In this document: in pieces, positions 1-30,354 of the stretch | Position numbering within the stretch: position 1 is the stretch's first letter | Layout of the letters: every line of letters starts with the position of its first letter | DNA from: Acidobacteriota bacterium | GTDB lineage: Bacteria; Acidobacteriota; CAIWXX01 | DNA length: 36,700 nucleotides | Reading direction: 5' to 3' | Assembly: GCA_040755995.1 (NCBI GenBank) | Contig: JBFMAF010000053.1 | Coordinates: forward strand, 1 to 36,700 | Program-made: the position numbers and the translations under genes | Notes under the pieces: model-generated | The model's input: only the letters and a program-made list of their open reading frames with translations | Told to the model about the DNA's origin: nothing | Databases searched by the model: none

Positions 1-127
1 CCGCCCAGTTCCACCCAGGCTCCCCGACGCCGTTTGGATCAACCCACCCACCAAGGAGAACATATCGACTGAGCCGACCTACACTAATTTCCAACCGTCG
101 GTGTCTCAAAATGCTTGACACGTTCCG
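1..127 (+). mobile_element. 3' end of an IS3-family insertion sequence (transposase C-terminus and right end)
   Basis: The frame from base 2 reads RPVPPRLPDAVWINPPTKENISTEPTYTNFQPSVSQNA* (TGA 116-118). The 'P..P.LP..VWINPP' tail is typical of one IS3-family transposase group. It is followed by TGTCTCAAAATGCTTGACACGTTCCG, which resembles that group's right end. The exact end (120-127) is uncertain. Confidence 0.7.
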
Positions 128-1601
128 CTTTCCCAATCCGCGGTTTCTCGCAGCTTGGCGGGAGCACCGCCTCATCTATGGCTACTCGCTCAGAGCGGAA
201 CTGGTCTATCAACTCAAGAAGGCATTGGAGCAGCGCGGGGACTTCCAACTCGAAGGGGATACTCGCCATCTGCTGGTGGATGAATACCAGGATCTGAACC
301 GTTGTGACCTGGGTGTCGTGCATGATCTCGCCTCTCGCTGCGTGGAATTGTTCGCTGCTGGGGACGACGACCAGAGCATCTACGGATTCAGGAAGGCCCA
401 CCCGGAAGGGATACGTCGATTCCATACTGACTACACCGGTTCGCGCGAACTGGTTCTCGAGCTCTGTAAGAGATGTGACCAGAAGATCTTGGACCTGGGA
501 CTATTCGTCGCTCGACAAGACTACCGCCGTATCGACAAACGGATCACGCCAGAGCCTGGGAGAACGCCGGGCGAGGTCAGCATCCTCCGCTTCCCCAATC
601 AGGCCGACGAGGCGGAAGCCGTGGCCCGGATCTGCCGGCACCTGGTTGACAAGCATGGTTTACAACCGGACGATATCCTTGTCCTCCTCAGGTCGGACCG
701 AAAGGCAGTGTTCTCCAATGTTCTTCGGCGACGGCTTGATGCAGCCAACCTTTCGACTGCGACGCGGACCGAAGGGGCCGGCCCGTTGGATGCGCCTGAA
801 GGCAGGTCGCTTCTGGCCTTCCTCCGTTTGGCGGCGAACTCCATGGACCACCTGTCGTGGCGCACTCTACTCATGACATTCTGCGCTGGCGTGGGCGACC
901 AGGCGATCCGGGCGCTGTATGAACTGGCTCGAGAGAGGGGAGAACCGTTCGGGCAGATTGTCCTTGCGGTCGAAGCCGACCCGAGTATCCTGCCGAGTTT
1001 GCACCGAAACCGCGCGGCCGGATGCATCTCGCACATTCGATCCACGCTTCGGGAGTTGTTCCCGAGCGGCACGGGGGATTACGGCTCGTGTGATCAACTG
1101 AAAGCGGCGGTGGGTGAAGCTGCAGTGCGGCTGGTCACGCAGGCGCATGACCGCGAGCTTGCCATGGCTCAGCTCGCCTTGGCGGTCGAACTCGGTCAGG
1201 CCACTTCGATGGAGAGCTTGGTGCGCGCAACGGAGCTCGTGGGAGAGGACATAGAGCAGGAACTCGAGCCCGGGAAGATCAACATATTGACGATGCACCG
1301 GGCAAAAGGGCTCACCGCCAAAGCAGTGATCGTCGTCGCCGCGGAAGACGAGTATCTCCCTGGACGCGCCCAAGGCGACGCCGTGGACGATGAACGACGG
1401 CTACTGTATGTGTCCCTCACTCGTGCCAAGCATCACCTATTCGTTACATACTGTGACCTGCGAACCGGCCGCCAGCGCTACACGGGACGGACCAGTGGAA
1501 CTGCCACGCGCTCGCTGACCCCGTTCCTGCGCGATGGCCCCGTGACCCCGGTCGATGGGAAAGCGTTCGTCCGCAAGCTGGCACAAGAGAGGCACCCGTG
1601 A
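111..1601 (+). pseudogene. UvrD/Rep (SF1) ATP-dependent helicase, 5'-truncated by the IS
   Basis: Motif II LLVDEYQD, motif III GDDDQSIYGFR, motif V TMHRAKGL and motif VI ERRLLYVSLTRAK are present. Walker A (motif I) is absent, and the ATG at 111 lies inside the IS end. Confidence 0.85.
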
Positions 1602-1759
1602 TCCCAACGAGCTCCGAACGGCTCCCGGAAGTCGATTTCCCCATCGCTCTAGTCTCGAAGCACTGGCCGCGGGATAAGTCCATCAGGAATGGGCTTCCGG
1701 GCACGCTCCATCTCTGCTGGGGGCGGAAGTTGCTGCCAGATCTGCAGGAGAGGCCGGGT
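1598..1759 (+). pseudogene. Decayed 5' fragment of a DUF1156 methyltransferase gene
   Basis: MIPTSSERLPEVDFPIALVSKHWPRDKSIRNGLPGTLHLCWG-RKLLPDLQERPG aligns with the start of 3759..6767 (MIPKECRRLAEVDFPIAVVSKHSAREKSIRHGHPSTLHLWWA...RKLLPDVQGKPG) with one internal deletion. Its GTG overlaps the helicase TGA. Confidence 0.9.
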
Positions 1760-1919
1760 CGAGATCTCCGACCCCGCCGACTTCCCCGAGGACATCCGGC
1801 TCGACAACCTCCTTGTCACATCGCCGCGCCGCTGCAACGCGGCTCTCGCGGATACCCTCAAGCGTGTGTGCGTCGTGGAACGCAGTGCTCGCGGGACAGA
1901 GGATCCCCCCGGGCTATGA
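1758..1919 (+). pseudogene. Remnant of an HATPase_c_4 ('RecG C-terminal') domain, as in AlbA_2/Schlafen-HATPase-HTH proteins
   Basis: VEISDPADFPEDIRLDNLLVTSPRRCNAALADTLKRVCVVERSARG matches the family pattern EI.NPGGFP.G...dNll....PRN..LA..f.R.glVER.gRG with several decayed positions. No plausible start codon. Confidence 0.65.
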
Positions 1920-1941
1920 CAAGCCATCATAGAGGAAGCCG

Positions 1942-3762
1942 ATGACTCATACCGTCACGCATTTCATGTGGGGCTATCAAGTGCACTTCCGAATTGAGCA
2001 TGAAGGGCACTCACACTCTCTATTCCAATTGCTGGACAAGCGATTTCATCCCGAAGTGTTCGTTGTCGGAGTGCGCATTGAAGAACATGCAAACCGATAT
2101 CCCGTATGCGTAGAGCCGGAGGACGATTTCTGGCTCACACCGGACGCTTTCGAGGGTGTTCTAAGAACTGCGGTCGAAATAGTCTCAACCTATCCGGAAA
2201 GCCGGATGTTTCACACTCATCCGATGGCCCAGAAGCAGTTGGAAGAATCGCTCTTCAAACGGGGCGTTCAGGACGCCGTCTCTAAGATGATATCCGAATG
2301 CCCCAGCAAGCCCGACGGCATGAGATACTACCCTTCCTTCCCGGTGAAGCTGGACTGCTTTCTTGTCTCACTGGTGCTGGGTCTGCAAGAGGAGGTTGTC
2401 GCCTCGCATGGCAGCCTCAGCGTCGACCGCGTTCCCATTCACGATTGTCGTTCATGTGAAGTGGCCACCTCATTGATTGATGCAGCCATCCACGCCTACC
2501 TGGACGATGTGGCAAGCGAACTCCTCAAGCCCGACCCCGGGGCTGACTTATCGGCGAGCAAGAGCCCGGGCGAGATACTTCGAGCAGCAGGCAACCTCTT
2601 GATGACCGGAATCGCCTACAAGACTGACCCAGGGGTGACCGGCTATTGGGGGACGATCTTCGACGCCTGGAACAGGATTTCCTCGCTCAAGTATGAGAGG
2701 GCCATCGGCAAAGGGCGGGTCGTCTTGGCCCGTCAAGACCATCCAGCCATAGCCCCAGAGATCACATTCGCGCAGCCTGTCAAGGTGCATGATTCCAGAG
2801 CCGCCCGCAAGCTCCTGCAACTTGCCTCCAAGGATTTGGCTCTTCACTCGAACGTCATGTATCTCTTCGGTCTCGCAAAGATCGGCAACTACCTGGCAGC
2901 TCAGGAAGACTTATACGAAGTCAACTTTCTTGACCATCATCTCTGGGAATTGGCCCATGCTGGTCATGTGCTCATGCGCGTCCAATTCGGGCAGCCGTCG
3001 TTGCCCGCGCCCGCCTTTGATGAGAAAAAGATGCGCAAGGATCTGGCCCGGATCTTTCCGCAGATCACCAGCCACCAGAGAGACCTGCTGGTTTGCCTTG
3101 TAAACGAAGCCGTAGGAGAGAAACACGGGACAATGCTCGTCATCGCCGAGGACGCGGCCAACGAAGCCAAACGACTCGTGAATCAGGCCACTCTCGTGGC
3201 CCCTCGACTCTTGAGGGCCGATCTTCTTAGGCAACTCACACCGATCGACGGCGCCGTCCTTGTCGACCCCAGCGGGACCTGTCACGCGATCGGCGTGATA
3301 CTCGACGGCATGGCCACGCAGAAAGGGAATCCAGCGCGTGGTGCCCGCTTCAACTCCGCTGTTCGTTACATAGAGACTCAGAAGAAGGCTTGTCTGGCTG
3401 TGATCGTCTCAGAGGATGGAGGAGTGGACATCATCCCGGAGTTGAGGCCTGCAGTGCGTCGGTCCACGATTGAGAACGCACTTGACGAACTTGAGGCACT
3501 CATGAGGTCCGAGCCCCTCAAGGTGCGGCATTACGGACGGGTGACAGAGTTACTGGAGGAACGGCGTTTCTATCTCTTGCCCGAGCATTGTGACAGAGCG
3601 AACCAATTGATCGCAGCCGCCGAGGAACGTTTGGCGAAGGACAATCCAGAAGCACCGCGTATCATTCGTCGCCAATTCGAACCTGATCCCGATTTTGCCC
3701 CTGGGCTTTACTACGAGCACGAGAGTACACTGGTAGGAGCGGGCGACAAGGGCCACGAATGA
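1942..3762 (+). CDS. Diadenylate cyclase (DisA_N/DAC) domain protein with long N-terminal putative sensor region (DACNG/DACNH-like)
   Basis: C-terminal DAC motifs KHGTMLVI, IDGAVLVD, RGARFNSA and IVSEDG. N-terminus FMWGYQ.HF. RBS AGAGGA precedes the ATG. The TGA overlaps the methylase ATG (ATGA). Confidence 0.8.
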   Translation: MTHTVTHFMWGYQVHFRIEHEGHSHSLFQLLDKRFHPEVFVVGVRIEEHANRYPVCVEPEDDFWLTPDAFEGVLRTAVEIVSTYPESRMFHTHPMAQKQLEESLFKRGVQDAVSKMISECPSKPDGMRYYPSFPVKLDCFLVSLVLGLQEEVVASHGSLSVDRVPIHDCRSCEVATSLIDAAIHAYLDDVASELLKPDPGADLSASKSPGEILRAAGNLLMTGIAYKTDPGVTGYWGTIFDAWNRISSLKYERAIGKGRVVLARQDHPAIAPEITFAQPVKVHDSRAARKLLQLASKDLALHSNVMYLFGLAKIGNYLAAQEDLYEVNFLDHHLWELAHAGHVLMRVQFGQPSLPAPAFDEKKMRKDLARIFPQITSHQRDLLVCLVNEAVGEKHGTMLVIAEDAANEAKRLVNQATLVAPRLLRADLLRQLTPIDGAVLVDPSGTCHAIGVILDGMATQKGNPARGARFNSAVRYIETQKKACLAVIVSEDGGVDIIPELRPAVRRSTIENALDELEALMRSEPLKVRHYGRVTELLEERRFYLLPEHCDRANQLIAAAEERLAKDNPEAPRIIRRQFEPDPDFAPGLYYEHESTLVGAGDKGHE

Positions 3763-6700
3763 TCCCCAAGGAATGCAGACGCCTGGCGGAGGTGGATTTC
3801 CCCATCGCAGTAGTGTCGAAGCACTCGGCGCGGGAGAAGTCTATTCGGCATGGGCATCCGAGTACGCTGCATCTGTGGTGGGCGCGGAGACCGTTGGCAG
3901 CGTGCAGAGCGATGCTCCTGGGGCTCTTGCTTCCGGACCCGTGCGACCCGCTCTGCCCGAGCGAGTTCAAGGCCGCGGCGCGAAAGCTACTGCCGGACGT
4001 GCAGGGCAAGCCGGGGCCTGAGGACAAAGACCTGCGGCGCGCATTGCTGAAGTTCATAGGTGATTTCGCCAACTGGGACCTCTCTTCGAATCAACAATAC
4101 CTCGCCGTCTCCCGCGGACTCGTCAAGGCCGCGCATCCGGAAGAGACCCCGCTCGTAGTGGATCCATTCGCAGGCGGCGGGTCGATCCCACTCGAAGCGC
4201 TGCGCCTAGGTTGCGATGCCTTCGCGAGTGACCTCAATCCCGTGGCATGCCTCATCCTGAAGGTCATGCTGGAGGACATCCCGCGCCATGGGCCGGAGCT
4301 GGCGGAGGAGCTGCGCCGGGTTGGGGCCGAGATCAAAGAGCAGGCCGAGAAGGAGTTGGCGGAGTTCTATCCGAAGGATAAGGACGGCGCCACGCCCATC
4401 GCCTACATCTGGGCGCGGACGGTCAGATGCGAGTCCCCGAATTGCGGCGCGGAGATCCCCCTCGCGCGGTCGTTCTGGCTGTGCAAGAAGGAGAATCGGA
4501 AACGCGCGTTGCGATATCGCGTCGTTCGCCGTGTAGGGGCACGGCGTGCCGTGCCCTCGGTGGAATTCGAGATCTTCGAGCCCAGATCGGATAAGGATGT
4601 TCCGACCGGCACGGTGACGCGCGCGAAAGCCACATGCGTGTGCTGCGGTACAGCGCTGCCTCCCGATCGCGTACGCGCGCAGTTGAGCGAGCAGCGCGGC
4701 GGCGCGGATGTCGTCTTTGACACGAAGGGCAATCGAATCGGCGGTGCGCGCATGTTGGCGGTGGTGACCCTCACAGCTGCTACGACAGGCCGCCAGTACC
4801 GCCTGACTGTCGACCGCGACTATCACGCCGTCTGGAAGGCACAGAAGCGGCTCAAGGCGATTCTCGACGACTGGGAGCGCGGCGGCAAGAAGGGTCTTTG
4901 CCCCGTGCCGGATGAGCCACTTCCCCCGATCGGTACTCTTGGCTTCCGCGTCCAGCGTTACGGCATGCTTCAGTGGGGCGACCTCTTCACGGCGCGGCAG
5001 AAGGTGGCGCTGGCAACGCTGGGGCGCACAATCCAGCGTTCTCACCGCGTGCCTGCGGTTGGAGAACTCCTAGCGCTGTGCCTTGACAGGGTGTCCAGCA
5101 GAAGCTCATCTCTGTGTCTATGGCGCTATCATGCAGACCAAGAGAAGGTAGAACACATCTTCGGGCGCCAGGCATTGCCTACGGTTTGGGATTTCGCGGA
5201 GTCAGTAATCACATCCGAATCCACCGGGAGCTTCGCGGATGCTTTGGATGTGGTCAGCCAGATGCTCACTTCCGCGTTCGGCACGATGCAACCAGGACAG
5301 GTTCAACAGGCCGATGCTCGCTCATCGCCGCTTCCCGACGCGGCGGCACGGCTCTGGTTCACTGATCCCCCGTACTATGATGCTATCCCATATTCCGACT
5401 TGTCGGATTTCTTCTTCGTATGGCTCAAGAGAACGCTTCCTGGTCATCCGCTGATTCAGGACCCGTTTGATTCCAATAATCCGCTTTCCCCCAAGGTGCA
5501 GGAAGCGGTACTGGATGAGACGAAATCCGCAAGCGGGAGACCGAAGGACCGAGCGTTCTTTGAAGAGACGATGGCCACGGCATTCAGGGATGGCCGTCGA
5601 GTGCTGCTGCAAGAAGGGATTGGCTCCGTTGTGTTTGCTCATAAGACCACGGAGGGCTGGGAGGCGTTGTTGTCGGGGATGATTCGCGGTGGCTGGGTCA
5701 TCACCGGATCCTGGCCAATAACAACGGAAATGCCCAACCGCTTGCGGGCGAGGGAGTCTGCTGCCTTGTCGGCGAGCGTCCACCTCGTCTGCCGCCCGCG
5801 GCCAGAGGACGCCCCGGTGGGCGACTGGGGCGACGTGTTGCGCGAGCTGCCGACACGGGTGGGTGATTGGATGGAACGGCTGCAGGGCGAGGGTATTCGC
5901 GGCGCGGATCTCGTCTTCGCCTGCATCGGCCCGGCGCTGGAAATCTTCAGCCGCTACCGCAAGGTCGAGACCCCCGAGGGCCGTGAGGTCAAGCTCCCGG
6001 AATACCTTGAAAAGGTCTGGGAGGTCGTCGGCCGCACGGCGCTCGAACAGGTACTCGGCACTGCGGAGGCCCGCGCGAGGAACAGTGCCGCGGGCGCGCT
6101 CGAGGAGGACGCTCGGTTGACGGCATTATTTCTGTGGACGCTCCAGTCCACTGACGGAGAGAACGGCTCCCGGGAGGAGTCAGCGGAAGAAGGCGACGAT
6201 GACACCGCTGAGGAAGATGAAGAGGATCGCGCGCCAAAGGGCAAGACCAAGGGCTTCAGCCTCATCTTCGACGTCGTGCGCCGTTTCGCTCAGCCGCTGG
6301 GGATCGCGCTACCGAAGTGGGAAGGACGAATCATCGAGACGCAAAAGGGTGTTGTGCGGCTCATGGCCGTCTCCGAGCGCGCGAAGCAGCTTTTCGGCGA
6401 AGACAGAGCGGAGTCGGTCGCTCAATGGATCGAGCACGACCCCAAGAAGGACATCCAGCTCGTCCTCTTCCCCGAGATGGAAGAAGAACACGTTCCCAAG
6501 ATCCGCGGCCGCCGGCGACACACTGTTCTGGAGGGGTCTGGGATGGAGATGAAGACCGAGCACGCCGCGACCACACTCGATCGCGTCCATGCAGCGATGC
6601 TGCTCCAGGCCGGCGGTCAAGCCAACGCGCTCCGGGCGCTCATCAAGGCCGAGCAGGATCGCGGCCCGGACTTCCTGCGCCTGGCGAACGCCCTCTCCGC

Positions 6701-6767
6701 ACTCTACCCCAAGGGCAGCGAAGAGAAACGATTGTTGGACGCGATGCTGCTTGCGGTGCCGAGGTGA
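3759..6767 (+). CDS. DUF1156-domain adenine-specific DNA methyltransferase with Zn ribbon
   Basis: N-terminal LHLWWARRPLAACRA (DUF1156), SAM-binding DPFAGGGSIP, Cys pairs CESPNC and CVCC, catalytic TDPPYYD, and FAHK. Confidence 0.93.
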   Translation: MIPKECRRLAEVDFPIAVVSKHSAREKSIRHGHPSTLHLWWARRPLAACRAMLLGLLLPDPCDPLCPSEFKAAARKLLPDVQGKPGPEDKDLRRALLKFIGDFANWDLSSNQQYLAVSRGLVKAAHPEETPLVVDPFAGGGSIPLEALRLGCDAFASDLNPVACLILKVMLEDIPRHGPELAEELRRVGAEIKEQAEKELAEFYPKDKDGATPIAYIWARTVRCESPNCGAEIPLARSFWLCKKENRKRALRYRVVRRVGARRAVPSVEFEIFEPRSDKDVPTGTVTRAKATCVCCGTALPPDRVRAQLSEQRGGADVVFDTKGNRIGGARMLAVVTLTAATTGRQYRLTVDRDYHAVWKAQKRLKAILDDWERGGKKGLCPVPDEPLPPIGTLGFRVQRYGMLQWGDLFTARQKVALATLGRTIQRSHRVPAVGELLALCLDRVSSRSSSLCLWRYHADQEKVEHIFGRQALPTVWDFAESVITSESTGSFADALDVVSQMLTSAFGTMQPGQVQQADARSSPLPDAAARLWFTDPPYYDAIPYSDLSDFFFVWLKRTLPGHPLIQDPFDSNNPLSPKVQEAVLDETKSASGRPKDRAFFEETMATAFRDGRRVLLQEGIGSVVFAHKTTEGWEALLSGMIRGGWVITGSWPITTEMPNRLRARESAALSASVHLVCRPRPEDAPVGDWGDVLRELPTRVGDWMERLQGEGIRGADLVFACIGPALEIFSRYRKVETPEGREVKLPEYLEKVWEVVGRTALEQVLGTAEARARNSAAGALEEDARLTALFLWTLQSTDGENGSREESAEEGDDDTAEEDEEDRAPKGKTKGFSLIFDVVRRFAQPLGIALPKWEGRIIETQKGVVRLMAVSERAKQLFGEDRAESVAQWIEHDPKKDIQLVLFPEMEEEHVPKIRGRRRHTVLEGSGMEMKTEHAATTLDRVHAAMLLQAGGQANALRALIKAEQDRGPDFLRLANALSALYPKGSEEKRLLDAMLLAVPR
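4533..4557 (+). repeat. REP palindrome lying in-frame inside the methylase gene
   Basis: GTAG + GGGCACGGC-GT-GCCGTGCCC. The first 24 nt match the palindrome at 15502-15529 at 23 positions. Encodes VGARRAVP. Confidence 0.85.
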
Positions 6768-6960: not shown

Positions 6961-7926
6961 GTGACCACAGATAGCAACAACCCGTCCATTTGGCAGCTTG
7001 CCGGTGGGCCGTCGAACAGGCCGTATGCTGATGTGTTTATCAAGTACGGCGTTGGACTCATCGGGCCGGGGGATGCTGGGGCATGGAAGCCTGAGCGGGA
7101 CGATGACGAATTCGAGGGTGGCTTCGTGCGCCGCTTCGCGAGCGAGATGGACGTAGGCGATGTGGTGCTGCTTCGGACCGGCCTCGCTACGATCAGCGCC
7201 GTGGGCGTCGTGGCCGGCGACTACCAGTACCTCAATCAGTTCGACGACGTGAACGGCTGGGACCTTCAGCATGGCCGGCGCATTCGGTGGTGCAGGTTGC
7301 CGCAGGACTACACGTTCGACAGCACAGTGTTTGGAGCCAATCCCACACGCTGCTCCCGAACCTGGAACGATGAAGTCAATGATTACGCGGAGCGGTTCCT
7401 GAAGTCGCCACCCAGTCACTGGCAGGACGCCTCCCTCCCGGCGCTCCCCACCGAAGAGCCGAGCCTGGAGATGATCCCACTGAAAATGGAAGGCGTCGTC
7501 GCGCAGGCTCAGGACCTGGCCCGTCTGTTCTGGGACCGGGAGAACTTCGGCGACCACCCGACTGAGGACGAGCTTGTCGCGCACTTCGTGGTGCCGTTTG
7601 TGCGACAGCTTGGCTGGCCGCCCGAGGGAATCGCGGTGAAGTGGCGGCGCATCGATGTCGCTGTATTCACCGCGCTGCCGCGCACTCCTGAGAATTGCCG
7701 CTTCATCATCGAAGCCAAACGACTCGGAGCCGGTGTTGAGGGCGCGCTCGAACAGGCAAAGGGGTATCTGCAAAGTCTCGGTATACTACGTGACGTGGTC
7801 GTCACGGACGGCATCCGGTACCGAATGTATTCGAGCGAACGGGCGTTCGAGCCCCTCGCCTACGCCAACCTGGTCCGACTCAAACAATCCGCCGTCAAGC
7901 TGTTCAACCTGATGCAGAGGCCATAG
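6961..7926 (+). CDS. Putative restriction endonuclease: N-terminal PUA/EVE-like domain + C-terminal HsdR_N-like PD-(D/E)XK nuclease
   Basis: C-half TEDELVAHFVVPF...IDVAVF...IIEAK...ALEQAKGY...VTDGIRYRMY fits the HSDR_N pattern. N-half (F..EM.VGDVVL...AVGVV.GDYQY...H.RRIRW) resembles the N-terminal domains of Mrr/McrB-like proteins. GTG start. Confidence 0.7.
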   Translation: MTTDSNNPSIWQLAGGPSNRPYADVFIKYGVGLIGPGDAGAWKPERDDDEFEGGFVRRFASEMDVGDVVLLRTGLATISAVGVVAGDYQYLNQFDDVNGWDLQHGRRIRWCRLPQDYTFDSTVFGANPTRCSRTWNDEVNDYAERFLKSPPSHWQDASLPALPTEEPSLEMIPLKMEGVVAQAQDLARLFWDRENFGDHPTEDELVAHFVVPFVRQLGWPPEGIAVKWRRIDVAVFTALPRTPENCRFIIEAKRLGAGVEGALEQAKGYLQSLGILRDVVVTDGIRYRMYSSERAFEPLAYANLVRLKQSAVKLFNLMQRP

Positions 7927-8063: not shown

Positions 8064-9260
8064 ATGAAGCCCATCATCAGAAGAGTCATCGTCAAACGAT
8101 TTAGGAGTTTCCCGTCGGATGTGGTCGAGTTCGATAACCCCACCTTCTTGGTGGGACGAAATGGCGCCGGCAAGAGCAACTTCGCTGACATGTTCAGTTT
8201 TGTAGCCGAGGCCATGTCTTCCCCATTGCAGGCGGTCTTTGACAGACGAGGGGGCATTTCCACCGTTCGCAACCGGAGTTCCGCACGTAGCTATCCGCCG
8301 AATCTGGGATTGGGGTTTGAGTTCGGCGCAATGAACGCTGAAATCGAAGGCGGGCGTTTTGCCTTCGAGATCAAGGCGCTGCCCGGGTATGGGTTCGAAG
8401 TAGTCCGAGAGCAGTGTCTGGTTCGATATGGCAATGGCAAGCGGTGGTGGTTCGACCGCCGCAAGGAGTTTCAATCAAACGCGCAGGGACTCAAACCCGC
8501 CGTGGAGCCCTCGGCATTGTCCCTTCCCGTCATCGGCGGCGATGCTCGCTTTGCGCCGCTCCTGAAGGCCCTGAGCGGGATGCGCGTGTATCTGATCGAA
8601 CCTACCAAACTGCGTGAGATGCAGGACCCCGACAGCGGGGCAACTCTGAGAAGGGATGGAGCGAATGCAGCAAGTGTTCTCCAGGAGATTGGCCGGAGTG
8701 CTCCAGAGACCAAGACGAGGGTGGAGGAGATCCTGGAGTCTATTGTGCCAAGTACGACTTCGGTCAAGCCCAAGAAACATGGAAACAAGCTGTCACTGGA
8801 ATTCGCACAGGAATGGGGACCCAGGAAGAGGCTGTTGTTTGAAGCCTTCAACATGTCTGATGGAACACTGAGAGCATTGGGTCTGCTGATGGCCGTATTC
8901 CAGAGTCCTCCACCGTCCGTTCTCGTGATCGAAGAACCTGAGGCAACCATCCATCCCGGCGCTCTGGGAGCAGTCCTCGATCTGCTCCAGCATGCCAGCC
9001 GATCGATGCAGGTGGTTGCAACGACGCACAGCCCTGAGCTGCTGGATGCACAATGGATCGAGGATCACCATCTCCGAATCGTGGTGTGGCAGGAAGGAGC
9101 ATCCCACGTGTTGCCGCCTGACGAAGCGTCGCGAAAGGCTATGACCCAGCACCTCATGGGCGCGGGTGAGTTGATACGATCTAATGCAATGCATCCTGCT
9201 CAGCTCTTCAAGGAGACACTGGAGCTCCAAGTCCGGGATCTGTTCGAGGACCTGGAATGA
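8064..9260 (+). CDS. ABC-type ATPase (AAA_21/AAA_15 family)
   Basis: Walker A GRNGAGKSN, signature MSDGT, Walker B VIEEPE, IHPG, and H-loop TTHSP. Confidence 0.9.
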   Translation: MKPIIRRVIVKRFRSFPSDVVEFDNPTFLVGRNGAGKSNFADMFSFVAEAMSSPLQAVFDRRGGISTVRNRSSARSYPPNLGLGFEFGAMNAEIEGGRFAFEIKALPGYGFEVVREQCLVRYGNGKRWWFDRRKEFQSNAQGLKPAVEPSALSLPVIGGDARFAPLLKALSGMRVYLIEPTKLREMQDPDSGATLRRDGANAASVLQEIGRSAPETKTRVEEILESIVPSTTSVKPKKHGNKLSLEFAQEWGPRKRLLFEAFNMSDGTLRALGLLMAVFQSPPPSVLVIEEPEATIHPGALGAVLDLLQHASRSMQVVATTHSPELLDAQWIEDHHLRIVVWQEGASHVLPPDEASRKAMTQHLMGAGELIRSNAMHPAQLFKETLELQVRDLFEDLE

Positions 9261-10105: not shown

Positions 10106-10423
10106 GTGATAGACGCGAACCTGTTGCAGGAAATAGTCAACCGCATTCTGACTGTCAGTAAGCCGGACAGGATCATCCTCTTCGGTTCCTCGGCCACCGG
10201 ACGGGCCGCACCAGACAGTGATATCGACTTGCTCATTCTCGAGCGCGAGGTGGCGAATCCTCGGGAGGCCTCACTGACAATCCGGGACGCTCTCCGCGGG
10301 CTGCGCACGCCCTTCGATGTAGTGGTGATGAGCACGGGAAGATACGATGAGACCAAACATGTGGTCGGCGGAATCGCCTATCCGGCCAACAAGTACGGGA
10401 AGGTTCTCTATGAAGTCGCCTGA
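10106..10423 (+). CDS. Minimal nucleotidyltransferase (MNT) antitoxin
   Basis: ILFGSSATGRAAPDSDIDLL (GS-x10-DxD), 105 aa, ending GKVLYE. Confidence 0.9.
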   Translation: MIDANLLQEIVNRILTVSKPDRIILFGSSATGRAAPDSDIDLLILEREVANPREASLTIRDALRGLRTPFDVVVMSTGRYDETKHVVGGIAYPANKYGKVLYEVA

Positions 10424-10832
10424 AGAAGTGAAGAGGGAGTTTGTCAATCAATGGCTCGGGAAAGCGGATGCTGACCTGAGGGCGAGTCGGCACCCCTTGG
10501 CGGGCGGCGAGGCGTACGCTGCCGGGGCGGCATTCCACGCGCAGCAGGCGGCTGAGAAATACCTGAAATCCTTGCTGGTCTGGTGTCAGGTGGAATTCTC
10601 GAAGACACACGACATCGGAGAGCTCCTTGACCTGATCGCTCGTTTCGATGAGGAGCTTTCCAAGGAACTGCAGGCGGCTACGGCGCTGACTCCGTATGCA
10701 GTCGAATTGCGCTATCCGCACGAAATGCCCGAACCGTCACTCGATCAGGCAAGGGAAGCCGTGGCGTTGGCAGAGGAGGTCCGAGTGGGCGTTCTGGAAG
10801 CTTTGCCCCTGGAGTTTGCCGGAGGACTGTAG
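10410..10832 (+). CDS. HEPN-domain protein (partner of MNT)
   Basis: WL.KA..DL, FHAQQAAEKYLK, KTHDI..L and ELRYP. The likely ATG at 10410 overlaps the MNT 3' end. Confidence 0.9.
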   Translation: MKSPEEVKREFVNQWLGKADADLRASRHPLAGGEAYAAGAAFHAQQAAEKYLKSLLVWCQVEFSKTHDIGELLDLIARFDEELSKELQAATALTPYAVELRYPHEMPEPSLDQAREAVALAEEVRVGVLEALPLEFAGGL

Positions 10833-10833
10833 C

Positions 10834-13605
10834 ATGGAATACTGGTACAAGGTCGCCACACCGCGCAAGGAAGTGCGCGAGGGCAGGTCATTCAACCCCG
10901 ACGAGTTCGCCATTCACATGGAGCAGGTGGTCGCCAGAACAGCCCCGGAGGACTACCGGGAGCCCAAGAAGTTCTTCGATCGCACCTGCTTCACACGGGC
11001 GCTCCGCGAGCACGCCGGCATGGTGCTGCGGCGCCTTGCCGGTGAAACGGTCAACACGGCCCCCGTGATGACGCTCATCACCCAGTTCGGAGGCGGGAAG
11101 ACCCACACGCTCACGGCACTCTACCACCTTGTGACAAACGGGGCGAAGGCATCCGAGTACTCGGGCGTCGGAGATCTCCTCAAGGAGTCGGGGCTCAAGG
11201 CCGTGCCGGCTGGCAGAGTCGCCGTGTTTGTGGGGAACGCCTGGGATCCCCGTGAAGGACGGGAAACTCCTTGGATCGACGTCGCTCGGCAGCTGGCCGG
11301 AGAGAAGGGTGCAGAGGAGCTAGGCTCGGCGGCCAGAACCACGCCGCCGGGCACCGAGGCCCTCGGGCGCATATTCGCCGCCGCGGGCGCGCCGGCTTTG
11401 CTGCTCTTCGACGAGGTGCTGAATTTCATGAACCGCCACAGGGGAATGGCCGAGCAGTTCCACGCCTTTCTCCAGAACCTGACCGTGGCCACGACAGGCA
11501 CCACGCGCGGTGCGGCGGTCATCAGCCTGCCCCGAAGCCAGGTGGAAATGACCGATTGGGACATGCAGTGGCAAGACCGGATCATGAAGGTCGTGCGGCG
11601 CGTAGCCAAGGATCTCATCGCAAACGACGAAACGGAGATCAGCGAAGTCGTCCGCCGCAGGCTCTTCGAGAAAATAGGCACCGACCGGACGCGAAAGAAC
11701 GTCGCCAAGATCTATGCCGATTGGTGTTTCGACCACCGCGCGGAGCTTCCGCCCGATTGGACCGCCGCGACCACAGAGGCCAAGTCCAGGGAGTTTCTCC
11801 GAGGCCGCTTCGAGGTCTGCTATCCGTTCCACCCTGCCACGCTTTCGGTGTTTCAGAGGAAGTGGCAGGCGCTTCCCCAGTACCAGCAGACGCGTGGCAC
11901 CCTCGCGATGCTCGCGCAGTGGATTTCCTGGGCCTATCGGACCGGCTTCACGGAGGCTCGGCCGGAGCCGCTGATCACGCTCGGGTCGGCACCGCTGGAA
12001 GTGCCGGAGTTCCGGAGTGTGGTGCTGGGGCAGCTTGGGGAGGCGCGTCTTGTGGCTGCGATCGAGACCGACATCGCCGGGCAGCAGTCCCACGCCCGGA
12101 CCCTCGACACGGATGCCAAGGGTCCGTTGAGAAGCATCCACCGGCGGGTGGGAACCGCGATCTTGTTCGAGTCATCGGGCGGCCAGGTCGACAAGGTGGC
12201 TCATTTGCCGGAGCTTCGATTCGCCGTCGGCGGACCCGCCGTCGATACTACATCCGTAGATAACGCGGCGTTCGCCCTGGAGAGCAAGTCTTACTACTTC
12301 AGGCGAGTCGGAACCGACGGGTTCAAGATCAATCACAAAGCCACCCTCAAGAAGGTGATGAACGACCGCCGGGCGTCTCTGGACTTGGAGACCGAAATCA
12401 AGCCGGCCATGCGGAAGATAATCGACGAGGAATACAGGCGCGGGGCTGGCGTGCCGGTCGTCTCGTTCCCCGAAGATGGTGCGGCGGTGCCGGACACACC
12501 CAGGCTCACACTGGTCGTCATGGATCCGGCCCACGAGTGGACAGGCGGGACTTCGCTCCGCAAGCAGATCGCAGAGTGGATGCGGCTCCGCGGCGAGTCG
12601 TCGAGGCTCTATCCGGCGTCTCTCGTGTGGTGTTTGAAGAAGCCCGGCAGGGATCTGTGCGAAGGAGTCGAGACGTGGCTTGCATGGAGGCGGGTCGCGA
12701 AAGAGCTCGACGACCAGCAGAAGAAGAAGAAAGGTCGGGACAAGGAGACGCAGGAATCGGGCATCGAGGATGCCGACCCAAGCGAGGTCGCGGTGCAACT
12801 GAAGCTGGCATCGGAGTCCACAAAGGAAGAGGTCTGGGGCGGATACCGGTTCGCGGTCATTGCCGACCCGGACGAGGCTGAGGGGGTCAAGGTCATAGAC
12901 CTCGGAGCGGGACACTCTTCGAGCGGAGAAACGCTCTGCGGGAGGGTCATCGCCGCGCTGCGGTCGCAGGCCATACTGAATGAATCCGTCGGCTCCGGCT
13001 ACCTCGAACGCAACTGGCCGCCTGCGTTCAAGGGAGCCGGCGCGTGGCCGTTGGAGAGTCTCCGTCGCAGCTTCCTGAACGGCTCCCTGACCCGCTTGCT
13101 CGACCCGGATACAACCTTGCGCGGGAAGATAGTGGAGTTTGTGAACCGGGGCGAGCTCGGGCTCGCATCGGGGCGGAAGGCTGACGGCACCTACGAACGC
13201 GTGTGGCACCAGGAACTGATCGGGGCCGAGGAAGTTGAGTTCGATCCGGACGTCTTCCTCCTCACCAAGGCAACCGCGCGCGCCCTGAAGCGAGCGGAAA
13301 CGCCGGAGAGCGCGCCCGTGTTTCCTCCGCCGCCGGTGCCGGAAGTCCGGCCCGGGCCACCTCTGGAGCTCGAACCCGCAGCGTCCGTCACCACGCGGAC
13401 ATTCCATATCAGCGGCAAGGTGCCGCCGGAACTCTGGAACCGGCTCGGGACGAGAATCCTGCCGAAGCTCCGATCGGGCACGGATCTGCAGGTGGGCGTC
13501 GATTTCTCAGTCAGCGTGACGAGCGACATTGCGAAGGCGTTCGAAGCGGATCTCCGGCAGATCCTCGACGATCTGGGGCTCTCGGATAAGGTGCAGGTGG
13601 ATTGA
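10834..13605 (+). CDS. DUF499-family AAA+ ATPase (BrxC/PglY-related)
   Basis: N-terminus MEYWYKVATPR.EV.EG...EFA, Walker A FGGGKTH, Walker B LLLFDE, VVRRRLF, YPFHP and QQTRGTL. The ATG is 1 nt after the HEPN stop. Confidence 0.92.
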   Translation: MEYWYKVATPRKEVREGRSFNPDEFAIHMEQVVARTAPEDYREPKKFFDRTCFTRALREHAGMVLRRLAGETVNTAPVMTLITQFGGGKTHTLTALYHLVTNGAKASEYSGVGDLLKESGLKAVPAGRVAVFVGNAWDPREGRETPWIDVARQLAGEKGAEELGSAARTTPPGTEALGRIFAAAGAPALLLFDEVLNFMNRHRGMAEQFHAFLQNLTVATTGTTRGAAVISLPRSQVEMTDWDMQWQDRIMKVVRRVAKDLIANDETEISEVVRRRLFEKIGTDRTRKNVAKIYADWCFDHRAELPPDWTAATTEAKSREFLRGRFEVCYPFHPATLSVFQRKWQALPQYQQTRGTLAMLAQWISWAYRTGFTEARPEPLITLGSAPLEVPEFRSVVLGQLGEARLVAAIETDIAGQQSHARTLDTDAKGPLRSIHRRVGTAILFESSGGQVDKVAHLPELRFAVGGPAVDTTSVDNAAFALESKSYYFRRVGTDGFKINHKATLKKVMNDRRASLDLETEIKPAMRKIIDEEYRRGAGVPVVSFPEDGAAVPDTPRLTLVVMDPAHEWTGGTSLRKQIAEWMRLRGESSRLYPASLVWCLKKPGRDLCEGVETWLAWRRVAKELDDQQKKKKGRDKETQESGIEDADPSEVAVQLKLASESTKEEVWGGYRFAVIADPDEAEGVKVIDLGAGHSSSGETLCGRVIAALRSQAILNESVGSGYLERNWPPAFKGAGAWPLESLRRSFLNGSLTRLLDPDTTLRGKIVEFVNRGELGLASGRKADGTYERVWHQELIGAEEVEFDPDVFLLTKATARALKRAETPESAPVFPPPPVPEVRPGPPLELEPAASVTTRTFHISGKVPPELWNRLGTRILPKLRSGTDLQVGVDFSVSVTSDIAKAFEADLRQILDDLGLSDKVQVD

Positions 13606-13644: not shown

Positions 13645-15213
13645 ATGGATGGCATGGGTGGAGCGCGTCTCTTCACACTGGTCCTGAGTCTCGCCTCTGC
13701 GTGTGCCGCCCGTCCCGCCGGGGCGACCGAGCCGTGGATCATCACGTCGCCGGTGAAGGTCACGACGCCGTTGGAAGTCGGGCACGTGATCATCGCCGAC
13801 GGTGGATACCTGGAAGTGAGTCGGGTGCCGGAGCCCGGATTCAGGGTCAGCGGCAATCTGATCTGCCTGGGAACGGGGCGCGCATACCTGCACGACTCGG
13901 TTGCGCAGGTGATGAGCACCTACCACGGCCAGTTCGCCACTGGCGCGATGGAACAGGGGACGATGACGATCGCCCGGTGCGACTATAGGGTTCCAAGTGG
14001 CGTGCAGCATGCACTCATCGCAGGCGGCACTGCCCGGGTCAGCATTCGCGACACTGACTTCGCCTTCGTGCAGCTTGCAACGGCGCAGCAGGGTACGCTC
14101 TCCGCTTCAGGGCTGAATGGCCAGTTTGAGGTCGTGGTCATGGATGAATCTCGTGTGGTTCTGGCCGACATCCCACGCGAATCGGGCAAGGGTGGACTGT
14201 GGGTCTGGCCGGAATTCCCGCGCGGCAGCAAGGCTATCTACACGCCGCCACTCCCGGGACTTGTCGAGAAGTTCACCTTCCCGCCTCCTGGCTCCGAGGG
14301 GATCGAGCAGCGCATCTCGCTCACGCGGTGCAGCGTCAAGCTCTGGCCGATGCTCGTGCGCGACCGCTGCGACCTGACGCTGCGCGACATCCCGGAGGAC
14401 AACTGGGTGGTTGTCGGTTTCCACATGCCGAACTCGTCAAACATCAGCGGATTGCGCAACGGGACCTATGTGGCAGACGGCGAGGTGCCGCTCAAGGATC
14501 GTACTGTCCGGCTTGAGCGAGCAAGCATAGATACATTCAACCTGTATCCGCAGAAGGGCGCACGGGTCGTCGTGGAGGATTCGACCGTCGGCGAGATACT
14601 TGCGATGGATCGGTGCGATGTCGTGCTGCGGCGCGTGGTGATCGACGGGAGCGGCGGGTACTTCGGCGCCGAGGGGACCTCCTCGGTCAGCGCCGAAGAC
14701 AGCAGGTTCACCTGCGACGTCCAGGCGAGCGACAAGGCAACGATGATCCTCCGAAGGTGCAAGCTGCTTCCCTACCCGCTCGATCCCACCGGCGCCTACA
14801 CCCGTTGCGGTGCCTTCGACACTGCTAGAATACTCCTCGATGCGACCACCTTGAAGACCACGCCGGCGCTCGGCGGCCAGGGACTGATCGCAGCCAGCTG
14901 GATCGCAAACCTCCCGGCGCATCCGCCCGCGCAAGGCGAGGTGGTGCAGTTGTCCGGGACGGCAGCGCAGTATTCGCTGAGCGGCTCCGTCGCGCCAGGC
15001 CGCTGGCGGCTCGATACCGTCAAGATGGCTGACGGATCCCGGATCACACTCGGTCGGGGCGATGGCGACATCACCGATGCGCTACTGGGCAGCTGGTCGG
15101 ACGCCGATCCATCCTCAGACTACGAGCTTCGCGTCGTCTTGACCGACGGCCTGAACCGCAAGCTCGTCGGACGATACTTGGTCCCGCGGGGTACGCGGAT
15201 CGCGGTGCAATAG
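13645..15213 (+). CDS. Secreted hypothetical protein, beta-rich (possible beta-helix)
   Basis: 522-aa ORF with GC-rich codon usage, signal-peptide-like N-terminus (RLFTLVLSLASACAA) and repeated short beta-strand patterns. Confidence 0.65.
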   Translation: MDGMGGARLFTLVLSLASACAARPAGATEPWIITSPVKVTTPLEVGHVIIADGGYLEVSRVPEPGFRVSGNLICLGTGRAYLHDSVAQVMSTYHGQFATGAMEQGTMTIARCDYRVPSGVQHALIAGGTARVSIRDTDFAFVQLATAQQGTLSASGLNGQFEVVVMDESRVVLADIPRESGKGGLWVWPEFPRGSKAIYTPPLPGLVEKFTFPPPGSEGIEQRISLTRCSVKLWPMLVRDRCDLTLRDIPEDNWVVVGFHMPNSSNISGLRNGTYVADGEVPLKDRTVRLERASIDTFNLYPQKGARVVVEDSTVGEILAMDRCDVVLRRVVIDGSGGYFGAEGTSSVSAEDSRFTCDVQASDKATMILRRCKLLPYPLDPTGAYTRCGAFDTARILLDATTLKTTPALGGQGLIAASWIANLPAHPPAQGEVVQLSGTAAQYSLSGSVAPGRWRLDTVKMADGSRITLGRGDGDITDALLGSWSDADPSSDYELRVVLTDGLNRKLVGRYLVPRGTRIAVQ

Positions 15214-15237
15214 GGACACTGCGCGCATTACCCTTTA
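15210..15237 (+). repeat. Degenerate REP copy upstream of RAYT
   Basis: ATAGGGACACTGCGCGCATTACCCTTTA matches the 28-nt REP at 19 of 28 positions (hand count). Its TAG is the stop codon of the upstream gene. Confidence 0.55.
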
Positions 15238-15242
15238 GTGAG

Positions 15243-15764
15243 ATGATGCGTCGCCATCGTCGTTCGATCCGCCTCAGGGGACATGACTACGCCCAGGCGG
15301 GGGCGTATTTCGTGACGATCTGTACGCATGAACGTCGGTGCATCTTCGGCGCAGTGATAGACGGAGAAATGCGGTTAAACAGGATGGGAACGATCGTTGC
15401 GGAGGAGTGGGTGAAAACACCGCAATTGCGGCCAAACGTAGGATTGGACGCGTGGGTGATCATGCCCAATCAGATCCACGGAATTGTCCTGATTTCCGAT
15501 GGTAGGGGCACGGCGCGCCGTGCCCCTACGATGGAACGATTCGGAGCGCCCGTGGTGGGTTCATTGCCGACCGTTGTGCGCGCGTTCAAATCTGCCACGA
15601 CGAAACGCATCAACGATCTCCGCTGCACACCCGCCACCACGGTCTGGCAACGGAATTATTACGAACACGTGATTCGAGACGAAGGTGACCTCATGCGAGC
15701 CCGGTGGTACATCGCCGGAAACCCCGCGAAGTGGGTGCAGGACGAACACCATACCCCAGAGTGA
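15243..15764 (+). mobile_element. REP-associated tyrosine transposase (RAYT, Y1/HUH family)
   Basis: RRSIRL.G.DY...GAYFVTICT, VIMPNQIHGI (HUH position), FKS, WQRNYYEHVIR and YI..NP.KW. Confidence 0.9.
15502..15529. repeat. Perfect 28-bp REP palindrome inside the RAYT gene
   Basis: GTAGGGGCACGGCG|CGCCGTGCCCCTAC is its own reverse complement and has GTAG ends. Confidence 0.9.
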
Positions 15765-15780
15765 CATCGTGACGACCCTC

Positions 15781-15799
15781 GTAGGCCGGCCCGGCCTAC
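15781..15799. repeat. Short GTAG-ended palindrome downstream of RAYT (REP-like; may also act as a terminator)
   Basis: GTAGGCCG-GCC-CGGCCTAC. Its CTA supplies the stop codon of the convergent gene. Confidence 0.6.
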
Positions 15800-16998
15800 G
15801 CCGCCGGGCGCCAAGGTGATCGCTGATGGGGCGCAAGTGGCCGGTTGGTCTCGCCGGAGGCGAGCCGCTCTTCGTAGGTCTCGGTCAGGAGCTTGAGGCG
15901 GCGCAGCATCTCGGTGGACATCACTTCATCCATGAGCAGGCCGATCCAACGGGCGATCGCGGCCCTGAAGCCGGTGCGGGGAAGGCCGAAGGTAATGCGG
16001 AAGTGGAGTCGCGTCGAATTGTCAGACTCGGGATCGACCCGAAAAGTCATCGCCACCGGCGTCTTCATGCCGAAGAAGCTAGGCTCGTCGTACCAGACCA
16101 GCTCCGCACCCCTGTCCACGTGGCGTATGGTACCGATATCTTTGTTCCAGTCTCCAACCTTCGGCTCCGGCACGTCGCAGAGGTAGTCGGCGTGCCGATG
16201 GCCGGGATTATCCAGGAAGTCCCACGAGTAGTAAGCCGCGCCTCTTCCGAACTGCGCGACCCAGGGCCACACCTTCTCCGGTCGCCGGTCGATTGTGATG
16301 GCGCGGTGGGCGTGGATTCCGCCTTCGACCATCTCATCTCCCGTCATCTTGCGGGCGAATTCCTCCGGGCGAGTGTTCCAACTCATCCTCTTGAAGATCC
16401 ATACACGCGGAATGGTTCGGAGCACCTGGCCGGCGCAGATGAGGAGCCCTTCCAGGAAGAAGCGCTCGAGACCATCTTGTTTCCGGCGAAGCATGTGACT
16501 GTGGGTGCAGGCGACGGCAAAACGGTCGGCGTTGGCCGCCAGCCCCCAGAGGGTCAGCAGGCACGGCCCCAAACCCACTACCGCGAACGCCCCAACGATT
16601 CCGGCGTAGTCACTCCATTGCCCCATCCCGCCCCGAAAGACCAGCCCATAGCGCTGGGCAGTGTATGTCATGAACATGTACACCCAGCAAATCGCGGACA
16701 TCATGCCTGCGACCTGGCCCCATCGGCGGCGGAACAGCACGCCGGCAAGCCCGGCGGCCATGAGGGGCATGACCAGCAACGCGTCGGCCACGCAGACCCC
16801 CCACTCTACGTGCGCCAGCACGCGCTGAACGATGTCTGCAGACTCTGGGTCGTTCTCCTGCAGCTGCAGGCGCAGCGCCAGGCCCCAGTCGAGCAGCGAG
16901 ACTACCTGCATACCCCCTCCCACCAGAAAGCAAAACAGCATGCAGCAGAGGGCGATCCAGATACCCAATGGATGACGGCCGACAGGGCGTCTCATCAC
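15796..16998 (-). CDS. Membrane protein fused to a C-terminal SRPBCC/START-like domain
   Basis: About four hydrophobic helices in the N-half, then RAITIDRRPEKVWPWVAQFG.GAAYYSWDFLDN and STRL, typical of SRPBCC proteins. Confidence 0.7.
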   Translation of the reverse strand: MMRRPVGRHPLGIWIALCCMLFCFLVGGGMQVVSLLDWGLALRLQLQENDPESADIVQRVLAHVEWGVCVADALLVMPLMAAGLAGVLFRRRWGQVAGMMSAICWVYMFMTYTAQRYGLVFRGGMGQWSDYAGIVGAFAVVGLGPCLLTLWGLAANADRFAVACTHSHMLRRKQDGLERFFLEGLLICAGQVLRTIPRVWIFKRMSWNTRPEEFARKMTGDEMVEGGIHAHRAITIDRRPEKVWPWVAQFGRGAAYYSWDFLDNPGHRHADYLCDVPEPKVGDWNKDIGTIRHVDRGAELVWYDEPSFFGMKTPVAMTFRVDPESDNSTRLHFRITFGLPRTGFRAAIARWIGLLMDEVMSTEMLRRLKLLTETYEERLASGETNRPLAPHQRSPWRPAA

Positions 16999-17262
16999 AG
17001 TTTGTTCATCCCTTCACGAAGATCTTCTTCAAGGGCAATGTCACACAGATCCGGTTCGATTATGGGGACACCGTATCGCCCGGCAGGCTGGCTGTCAAGA
17101 CCCAGGGCAGCGCCTGCGTACAACCCTCAATGGCAGGGGGCGTGTGCATCTCGTCCCGCTGGAGGAGCGGCCAGGCAAGCCTGCCGGGCGTTCGTCCCAA
17201 CCCGATTGCCTCTGGCGGCCGGTGGTGTCACGATTCGCGCATGAATACGAAAGGAGCAGAGT

Positions 17263-30095: not shown

Positions 30096-30354
30096 GTGCT
30101 TGGGAGGTCGGGTCGGCCTTTCGCGGGTCGGCACATTCCTGATGTCATCTCCGCTCCAGGAGTCAAGAGCCTGAATTCGGTGAATTCGCCGTGAATCTGC
30201 GCGTTAGAGCATGAGGGGTCTAATGGAATGCGGATAGCTAGAACCAGCGGAGAACCAGGTCTTGGTCAGTGATGTCCATGAGGAGGACCTTGGGAGAACC
30301 GCATATGCTCGGGCCGAAAGACGTGTCAAGGGGAAGGCTTTCGTCGATGCGATC

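Follow-up and report, generated by a model that had tools for sequence, protein, structure and literature searches.

A gene at positions 1942 to 3762 of a 36,700-nucleotide stretch of DNA from an Acidobacteriota bacterium (contig JBFMAF010000053.1 of assembly GCA_040755995.1; the whole stretch is called the window) encodes an intact diadenylate cyclase of the CdaG/DS-2C family, which by its architecture and motifs is an immune-type enzyme. Our preferred reading, with a probability of roughly 0.75, is that the gene came in independently, as a cassette with no other gene, and took up the slot immediately ahead of hmaB in an Hma system. The interior of Hma is a known insertion hotspot for defence genes, and the cyclase is cargo there rather than an Hma component. 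The window is the entire contig C53 of a 7.7-Mb genome (56 contigs, completeness 99.84%). Three features, all on the forward strand, are central to the argument:

1942..3762, plus strand: CdaG/DS-2C diadenylate cyclase, 606 residues, with DACNG, DACNH and DAC domains and a C-terminal helical bundle
3759..6767, plus strand: hmaB, DUF1156 N6-adenine methyltransferase, 1002 residues, PADLOC HmaB 384 bits
1598..1750, plus strand: decayed copy of the hmaB 5' end, 63.6% identity over 44 residues, with weak DUF1156/HmaB matches

An intact CdaG/DS-2C cyclase

The preliminary description of this DNA, made from the sequence alone, had reported a 606-residue non-membrane protein with DAC motifs and an ATGA overlap with the methylase gene, all of which stands. 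The ATG at 1942 follows a purine-rich ribosome-binding stretch, the motifs IDGA, GARFNSA and VSEDG start at residues 435, 467 and 489, and the Kyte-Doolittle maximum of 1.42 over any 19-residue stretch indicates that there is no membrane helix. The profile check for DACNG and DACNH proposed there found both. More specifically, Pfam places DACNG at residues 9-221 (155 bits), DACNH at 239-340 (78 bits) and DAC at 389-494 (41.7 bits), all above the cut-off and in the order DACNG-DACNH-DAC that CdaG/DS-2C membership requires. The DAC region spans approximately residues 377-500, including D436 and R469, and a helical bundle follows at about 502-583. The NCBIfam model NF053872 (DS2_3_antiphage) matches residues 6-585 with 576.3 bits (E 5.8e-173), below its equivalog cut-off of 630; the 2023 PADLOC collection has no model covering CdaG cyclases.

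In an AlphaFold2 model of the protein (mean pLDDT, the predicted local distance difference test score, of 89), residues ~360-501 match DisA, CdaA, CdaS-like and CdaM structures at Z 12-13, followed by the helical bundle. A separate model of residues 5-355 (pLDDT 93) has DAC structures as its top four matches, covering the DACNH part (Z 6.7-7.5), and its DACNG part resembles roadblock/GAF-type folds (Z 5-6.5), all of these values lying below the reliability level of 8. The modelled DACNH fold agrees with a remark in PMC13640721, which describes DACNH as distantly related to DAC and catalytically empty. A sequence search of the PDB returned a CdaS-like DAC as its sole match (E 0.002), and a search of the ESM Atlas with DACNG gave nothing usable.

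The same architecture has been named CdaG (Galperin 2023, as cited in PMC13640721), DS-2C in the DS-2 system (PMC13092281) and the DAC of CBASS-DAC/Liu-DS2 (PMC13069673), where CBASS denotes cyclic-oligonucleotide-based antiphage signalling systems. The preliminary description had offered the locus as an undescribed system, a claim that falls at the level of the family, for which genetics and biochemistry have been published. The E. coli DS-2 system consists of a patatin, a cGAS/DncV-like nucleotidyltransferase (CD-NTase) and a DAC, and mutating two predicted catalytic residues abolished its defence (PMC13092281). One mutant is D433A and the other is labelled R468A; the primer for the latter points to the Arg of RGS-R-YNS, which we count as position 466 in WP_001593457.1. 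Our cyclase is 33% identical to this E. coli protein across 556 residues, and its D436 and R469 align with the two residues. In CBASS-DAC the DAC is essential, cGAS is nearly dispensable, the phospholipase residues that bind the signal are required, and the phage enzyme Acb1 blocks defence (PMC13069673). Furthermore, three DS-2C proteins are active in vitro, and liquid chromatography coupled to mass spectrometry (LC-MS) identified cyclic di-AMP (c-di-AMP) as the product of two of them, from Hymenobacter (bioRxiv 10.64898/2026.08.10.743927).

At least 1,362 relatives were recovered in a homologue search that scored 8,000 candidates. Its top 120 share 43-62% identity with the cyclase, and nearly all have the same three domains. 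D436, G437, A438, R466, G467, R469, N471 and S472 are invariant across 59 aligned sequences. The gene thus shares with CdaG/DS-2C the order DACNG-DACNH-DAC-helical bundle, a length of ~580-600 residues, the DG and RGxR[FY]NS motifs, the two defence-essential residues and a defence-island setting, but sits on a separate branch from the E. coli protein. It also differs from DS-2 in lacking an adjacent patatin or CD-NTase (none was found in the genome either), in having UvrD and hmaB as neighbours, in being embedded in Hma and in residing in a host with a housekeeping CdaA-type cyclase. By architecture and motifs the cyclase belongs to the CdaG family, but the locus is not a DS-2/CBASS-DAC system.

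Two other groups of DAC enzymes deserve comparison. The housekeeping enzymes CdaA, DisA and CdaS share the DAC fold and the DGA motif with our protein, which has RFN in place of RHR, no membrane helices and no DisA linker/HhH; a Pfam scan found no CdaA- or DisA-type accessory domains in it. The earlier view of an immune-type rather than housekeeping cyclase is borne out. Panoptoo/PanDA likewise has an immune DAC domain with a degenerate RHR motif, but PanS is a constitutive enzyme of ~150 residues paired with the 2TM-beta effector PanE, whereas the cyclase here is a sensor-bearing enzyme of 606 residues with two extra domains, and no Cap15-like gene was found.

Proposed coupling to the Hma methylase

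The preliminary description had also proposed that the cyclase is coupled to the methylase/ATPase complex and possibly guards it, and had suggested surveying neighbourhoods for co-occurrence with DUF1156 and DUF499. Sequence comparisons did not support coupling in either direction. The cyclase stop and the hmaB start overlap as ATGA at 3759-3762. The start codon context of hmaB is (A/G/T)TGA, and among 12 further hmaB-type starts, 7 (including 6 of the 10 that are intact) have an upstream frame of at least 100 codons that ends in the same overlap, the upstream genes being unrelated; this count excludes seven more distant hmaB loci with an unaligned start. Because the overlap is a generic property of the hmaB start, it is uninformative on coupling, and we rejected it as a sign of a cyclase-methylase link.

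To place the cyclase among its relatives, 79 CdaG loci were compared: 5 came from genomes and 74 from metagenomes, the latter drawn from the 80 best of 556 confirmed stretches. They correspond to 59 non-redundant loci. Hma genes were found near one of the 79 (L066), in which CdaG is the second gene past an hmaABC-type locus, with an OLD-like ATPase between them. In a tree built with a quick method from 56 rows (11 of the 59 loci left out as partial or over-long), that copy falls on the opposite side of a well-supported split from our cyclase. Viewed from the methylase, a close hmaB is present in 17 of 400 sampled genomes of the phylum, and none of the 18 stretches taken from these 17 genomes holds a CdaG gene. 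NF053872 or DACNG was matched in 0 of the same 400 genomes, the cyclase's own genome serving as the sole positive control; one of the 400 (G048) is unpublished and is counted only as a genome without a match. A published table covering genes up to ten positions from 1,079 hmaA genes lists pfam06634 921 times and pfam04465 872 times; its two pfam02457 entries are both CdaA. The DACNG and DACNH labels are absent from this table, which may predate the models and would miss an unannotated CdaG.

No other gene of the locus emerged as a partner of the cyclase. The 792-residue protein, the UvrD halves, DUF1016, AAA_13, the 321-residue protein and HEC-01B had no match in any of the 79 CdaG loci, while HEC-01A and Hma had a match at L066 alone and AlbA_2 at L065 alone. 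For lack of recurrence we rejected these genes as partners.

These results bear directly on the idea that the cyclase is a functional layer of Hma, binding or monitoring HmaB/HmaC and firing, in the manner of PrrC with its type I system, when a phage anti-restriction protein disables them. The shared strand and the ATGA overlap would fit, embedded backup systems such as PrrC and BrxU are known (bioRxiv 10.1101/2024.01.29.577857), L066 provides a second CdaG near Hma, and a DNA methylase is the commonest recurrent neighbour in the clade (5 loci, one cluster). Against this stand the genericity of the overlap, the absence of CdaG from all 17 genomes with a close hmaB, the single Hma association on another branch, and the unrelated types (II, IIG and III) of the methylases beside other CdaG genes, a label that does not cluster on the tree (values as low in 84 of 500 shuffles). 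We regard such a layer as highly improbable.

Probable traces of cassette insertion

The preferred reading of an independent cassette draws on the sequence just upstream of the cyclase. There, the open reading frame (ORF) 1598-1945, whose origin went unmentioned in the preliminary description, opens with the hmaB-like remnant. The remnant is 80% identical to hmaB 3779-3888 over 110 bp, a score reached in 0 of 300 shuffles, and its start overlaps the stop of the UvrD gene through GTGA, as the cyclase overlaps hmaB. Since a decayed copy of the hmaB start lies immediately before it, the cyclase appears to be an inserted cassette. It probably came in through recombination at the conserved start of hmaB, leaving a direct repeat on either side. 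The guanine-cytosine (GC) content is 0.56 for the cyclase gene, 0.63 for hmaB and 0.64-0.67 for core genes. A promoter and terminator scan over 1500-4000 gave chance-level results only.

Among the 17 hmaB genomes, G072 has a comparable arrangement: two tandem hmaB genes lie ~12 kb apart, and two hmaB 5' remnants (L106:10974-11151 and 12111-12185) flank cargo before the second hmaB, which is apparently frameshifted. Direct repeats of a conserved gene end around cassettes would be the expected trace of single-crossover integration at that site, and the hmaA-end and hmaB-start remnants together suggest that cassettes enter Hma via conserved gene ends. We found no report of repeat-mediated cassette gain in the literature searched, which was mostly open-access. 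The decayed ends suggest how Hma hotspots gain cargo, a mechanism unaddressed in the Hma papers examined.

Repeated gene ends also occur on contig C39, which carries hmaA. A second copy of the terminal 154 bp of hmaA, 94.8% identical, follows the DUF1016 and AAA_13 cargo (C39:5916-5763 vs C39:10261-10108). The 3' end of the AlbA_2/HATPase_c_4 gene (C39:4659-3436, L018) recurs two more times downstream at 71-84% identity, and the last of these copies runs into the Fic-C helix-turn-helix (HTH) ORF.

Neighbours of CdaG relatives

Around the 59 non-redundant loci, 275 neighbouring ORFs were called by a simple rule that skips short ORFs; 18 loci have 3 kb of flank on both sides and 30 have 3 kb on one side. 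No CD-NTase or patatin was found by PADLOC among the 275 or by Pfam among the 136 nearest, nor by tblastn with CBASS probes near the 59 loci. By comparison, the three proteobacterial CdaG loci that we inspected are all linked to a patatin or CD-NTase, and 15 of 30 homologues were reported to adjoin CBASS (PMC13092281). The Bacillus, Phycisphaera and Dyadobacter plasmid copies have no annotated patatin or CD-NTase neighbours. Three loci have E1/E2-like genes within ~8 kb.

An all-against-all clustering of 309 neighbour ORFs recovered only N6/N4 methylases (5 loci) and pairs as recurrent. A small control with Shedu loci showed methylase adjacency in 0 of 9 (p = 0.58), too few to gauge the background of defence islands, with flanks partly occupied by the Shedu gene itself and probes derived from CdaG loci. 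Given the unrelated methylase types, their unclustered distribution and the size of this control, a loose tendency of CdaG genes to ride with methylation systems is not established, although they may have one.

Several of these and the foregoing observations weigh against reading the gene as an intact CdaG enzyme delivered as an independent cassette. Restriction-type DNA methylases are, after all, the commonest recurrent neighbours of the clade, lying within 1.5 kb at 6 of the 50 loci whose flanks reach 1 kb or more (a seventh, L053, is truncated). In P0035, a close kin of L036, the cyclase reads through into a type III Mod methylase as one 807-residue ORF. By its NF053872 score our protein belongs to the broader family but not to the narrow E. 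coli-type equivalog; the fold matches of DACNG and DACNH are only suggestive, and the cyclase activity of the protein and of its sub-clade is predicted. No hmaB remnant was found in the stretches from the other 16 hmaB genomes, leaving only 1 of 17 positive. Finally, the join between contigs C39 and C53 across an unassembled repeat, although most likely correct, is itself deduced from the split UvrD gene and the repeat ends.

A different view of the neighbourhoods would make the cyclase a non-immune stress or osmotic enzyme that supplements CdaA and landed in a permissive site. Some close relatives do lie amid housekeeping genes, such as L028, between a transhydrogenase and an efflux pump, and L002, and 38 of the 59 loci have no defence-like gene within two ORFs, many of their flanks being short. 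However, defence-like genes lie within two ORFs at 21 of 59 loci (counted without a background control), CdaG branches are reported as enriched in anti-phage neighbourhoods (PMC13640721), and the patchy spread in the phylum sample and the low GC content relative to core genes point the same way. We find this view very doubtful.

Some individual loci stand out. P0035, L036:10001-12442 and L027 form a sub-clade in which CdaG is flanked by an HTH-like stretch on one side and a type III Mod gene on the other. In L068:6486-10873 and L031 the CdaG matches are distributed across ORFs that are split or of unusual length and may represent fusions or interrupted genes. L094:462-5220 is an archaeal-looking locus with an adjacent TATA-binding protein (TBP) gene. 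There, E2 and ThiF/E1 genes precede CdaG, and a divergent CARF-like Csa3/DUF6293 gene in the vicinity is the sole receptor-like neighbour in the survey. On an E. coli chromosome (L102:2069-9746), DS-2 directly precedes a second, DncV-type CBASS operon.

Product, effector and output

By analogy with its published relatives, the cyclase would make 3'3'-c-di-AMP from ATP. The GAF/roadblock-like DACNG may sense a phage cue, the catalytically empty, DAC-fold DACNH may keep the enzyme off until that cue arrives, and two DAC domains would then pair to release a burst of c-di-AMP. In the E. coli relative, cyclase activity triggers abortive infection via a separate effector, according to published work.

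The preliminary description took RFN at the RHR position as a hint of another product. Among the best 120 homologues, however, 69 carry RYNS and 50 RFNS (119 together), and the validated E. coli enzyme carries RYNS. As RFN/RYN is the norm of a family in which the DS-2C proteins tested gave c-di-AMP, it is no pointer to an odd product, and we rejected a novel product deduced from it. A product such as cyclic UMP-AMP (cUA), kept apart from the housekeeping pool and read by an unknown receptor, can also be argued on other grounds: minimal immune DACs (PanS) mostly yield 3'3'-cUA (bioRxiv 10.64898/2026.08.10.743927), PanS was never seen alongside a non-immune DAC in one genome according to PMC13640721 while this host has a CdaA-type enzyme, and, as a weak point from the model, the DAC-like DACNH fold could break active-site symmetry. 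In view of the LC-MS result for the two Hymenobacter proteins and the family-wide motif, this is quite improbable.

The earlier statement that no receptor is visible also held, as SAVED, CARF and STING had no Pfam match among the 26 ORFs of the window. In the host genome, SMODS was not found (control positive in 3 of 14 genomes), nor was SAVED (positive control G055), nor were Cap15 (PF18153), STING and DncV-like proteins, for which there was no positive control; CARF was not searched genome-wide. Six DS-2/CBASS probes, four of which also served in the neighbour survey, had no match in the host genome at E 0.01, and none of its four patatin-domain genes resembles DS-2 or CapV patatins at that threshold. 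The host does have a CdaA-type cyclase elsewhere (C49), with DGA and RHR motifs, followed by a gene that we take to be cdaR. A separate strong DAC match is present in 4 of 5 other CdaG hosts and SMODS in 0 of 5, these being incomplete genomes; in three of them the DAC search did not pick up the weak DAC of CdaG itself.

With no effector encoded beside the cyclase, its signal has to act in trans. In excess, c-di-AMP harms bacteria. We tentatively favour an output via the host's own c-di-AMP-regulated machinery, given its CdaA-type cyclase; the use of host c-di-AMP in antiviral signalling has a precedent in archaeal TIR-SAVED (bioRxiv 10.1101/2025.06.19.660554). An unrecognised receptor elsewhere is possible, a cyclase without a current output is unlikely, and some other output is rather more unlikely still.

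A related proposal is that the cyclase is a stranded part of CBASS-DAC, left in this host without an output after losing its phospholipase and CD-NTase partners. The sole validated setting requires a patatin effector (PMC13069673), neither a DS-2-type patatin nor SMODS, SAVED, Cap15, STING or DncV-like proteins were found in the nearly complete genome, and the locus has other broken parts, namely the split UvrD gene and the remnants. On the other hand, across the 59 loci in which no CD-NTase or patatin was seen, the genes are as a rule full-length and their catalytic residues invariant. Such intactness throughout an effector-less clade is hard to reconcile with repeated loss of function, and we consider stranding improbable.

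A bolder extension of the cassette reading, speculative and in our judgement unlikely, is that most environmental CdaG enzymes are stand-alone, one-gene defences without a dedicated effector, which flood the cell with c-di-AMP once they sense infection and act as a second line inside methylation systems, the CBASS phospholipase pairing occurring only in hosts without c-di-AMP signalling. It is consistent with the absence of CD-NTases and patatins near the 59 loci and their linkage at all three proteobacterial loci, as well as with the separate housekeeping-type DAC in this host and 4 of 5 others and the lack of SMODS in those five. If it were true, host ion and osmolyte machinery under c-di-AMP control would become the killing or dormancy step; it names Hma and type II/III restriction as carriers, and E. 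coli, Citrobacter and Gluconobacter as phospholipase-paired hosts. Published work treats DS-2C/CdaG as a CBASS accessory, whereas the relatives sampled here are mostly without CBASS. Because the host has c-di-AMP signalling of its own, the gene is suited to testing an effector-less CdaG.

The Hma locus around the cyclase

The neighbouring genes were correctly assigned to a DUF1156/DUF499 defence system in the preliminary description, with PADLOC identifying both HmaB and HmaC. HmaB has DUF1156 at residues 14-63 (Pfam), DPFAGGG at 135 and DPPY at 536. The remaining features of the locus in the window are as follows:

1..130, plus strand: insertion-sequence-like repeat end that interrupts the UvrD gene and closes the contig, 99% identical to the end of contig C4
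111..1601, plus strand: UvrD/GajB-like helicase, C-terminal part (cargo), Pfam UvrD_C and UvrD-helicase
6961..7926, plus strand: putative nuclease of 321 residues (Hma cargo), weak HSDR_N match, E 0.009
8064..9260, plus strand: HEC-01A ABC ATPase (Hma-embedded candidate), PADLOC 362 bits
9257..9886, plus strand: HEC-01B (DUF4276), PADLOC 191 bits and Pfam
10106..10832, plus strand: MNT nucleotidyltransferase and HEPN pair, Pfam NTP_transf_2 and HEPN
10834..13605, plus strand: hmaC, DUF499 AAA+ ATPase, PADLOC HmaC 282 bits

The hmaC ORF was listed from 10696, but homologues align from 10834, and the G057 homologue is 70% identical starting at residue 1. Both hmaB and hmaC lie on one strand, as Hma membership requires. 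Contig C39 carries hmaA (PADLOC 547 bits; SNF2, Helicase_C and NOV_C) and, upstream of its UvrD half, cargo comprising the 792-residue protein, Fic-C HTH, AlbA_2, an AAA_13 ATPase (PDC-S06) and DUF1016 (PDC-S02). The repeat at 1..130 is 83% identical to a copy inside C4. The opposite end of a repeat of this kind, common to C37, lies at the start of C39, where on the reverse strand it comes after the N-terminal half of UvrD. Against the GajB profile PDLC00117, the C39 piece covers positions 19-138 and the window piece 221-377. The joined contigs would give an hmaA-cargo-hmaB-cargo-hmaC locus with about ten cargo genes.

The locus shares with Hma the genes hmaB (DUF1156) and hmaC (DUF499) on one strand and, if the contigs join in this way, hmaA (SNF2 and NOV_C), with cargo in both intervals that includes HEC-01A/B. 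It differs in its number of cargo genes (about ten, against three per interval permitted in the published survey), in the CdaG cargo, in the hmaA- and hmaB-end remnants between cassettes and in being split over two contigs. Embedded genes are reported in 931 of 1,485 Hma systems (62.7%; bioRxiv 10.1101/2024.01.29.577857) and in ~66.5% in a second survey (PMC11232893), which also reports anti-phage activity for a Halomonas HmaA; Hma is also described as a DUF499-centred BREX-related system (PMC12839542). In the closest Hma relative, G057 (70-73% identity), the DUF1016 gene after hmaA is kept and RmuC, SIR2 and HerA lie before hmaB. Homologues of the 321-residue protein (59-67% identity) lie between hmaB and hmaC in L103 and L107, where the cyclase is absent.

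We found no report of CdaG as a companion of Hma or restriction in the literature searched, again mostly open-access and without the supplementary tables of Hma-embedded families; a CdaG entry in such a table would lower the novelty. As it stands, one more CdaG is added to the Hma cargo list, which is of modest significance.

The gene for the 792-residue protein (L018:616-2991, minus strand) directly precedes the UvrD helicase (L018:109-609 plus window 111-1601). The protein has no Pfam or PADLOC match, and the ESM Atlas gave unnamed clusters only; the two genes are possibly an undescribed nuclease-helicase defence pair interrupted by the insertion element. After hmaC, at 13645-17244, lie three ORFs of 522, 173 and 472 residues without a Pfam match, the first of which has a secreted, beta-rich appearance. 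Further along, at 30262-32131, a BNR/Vps10-repeat gene is present as two overlapping ORFs, suggesting a frameshift.

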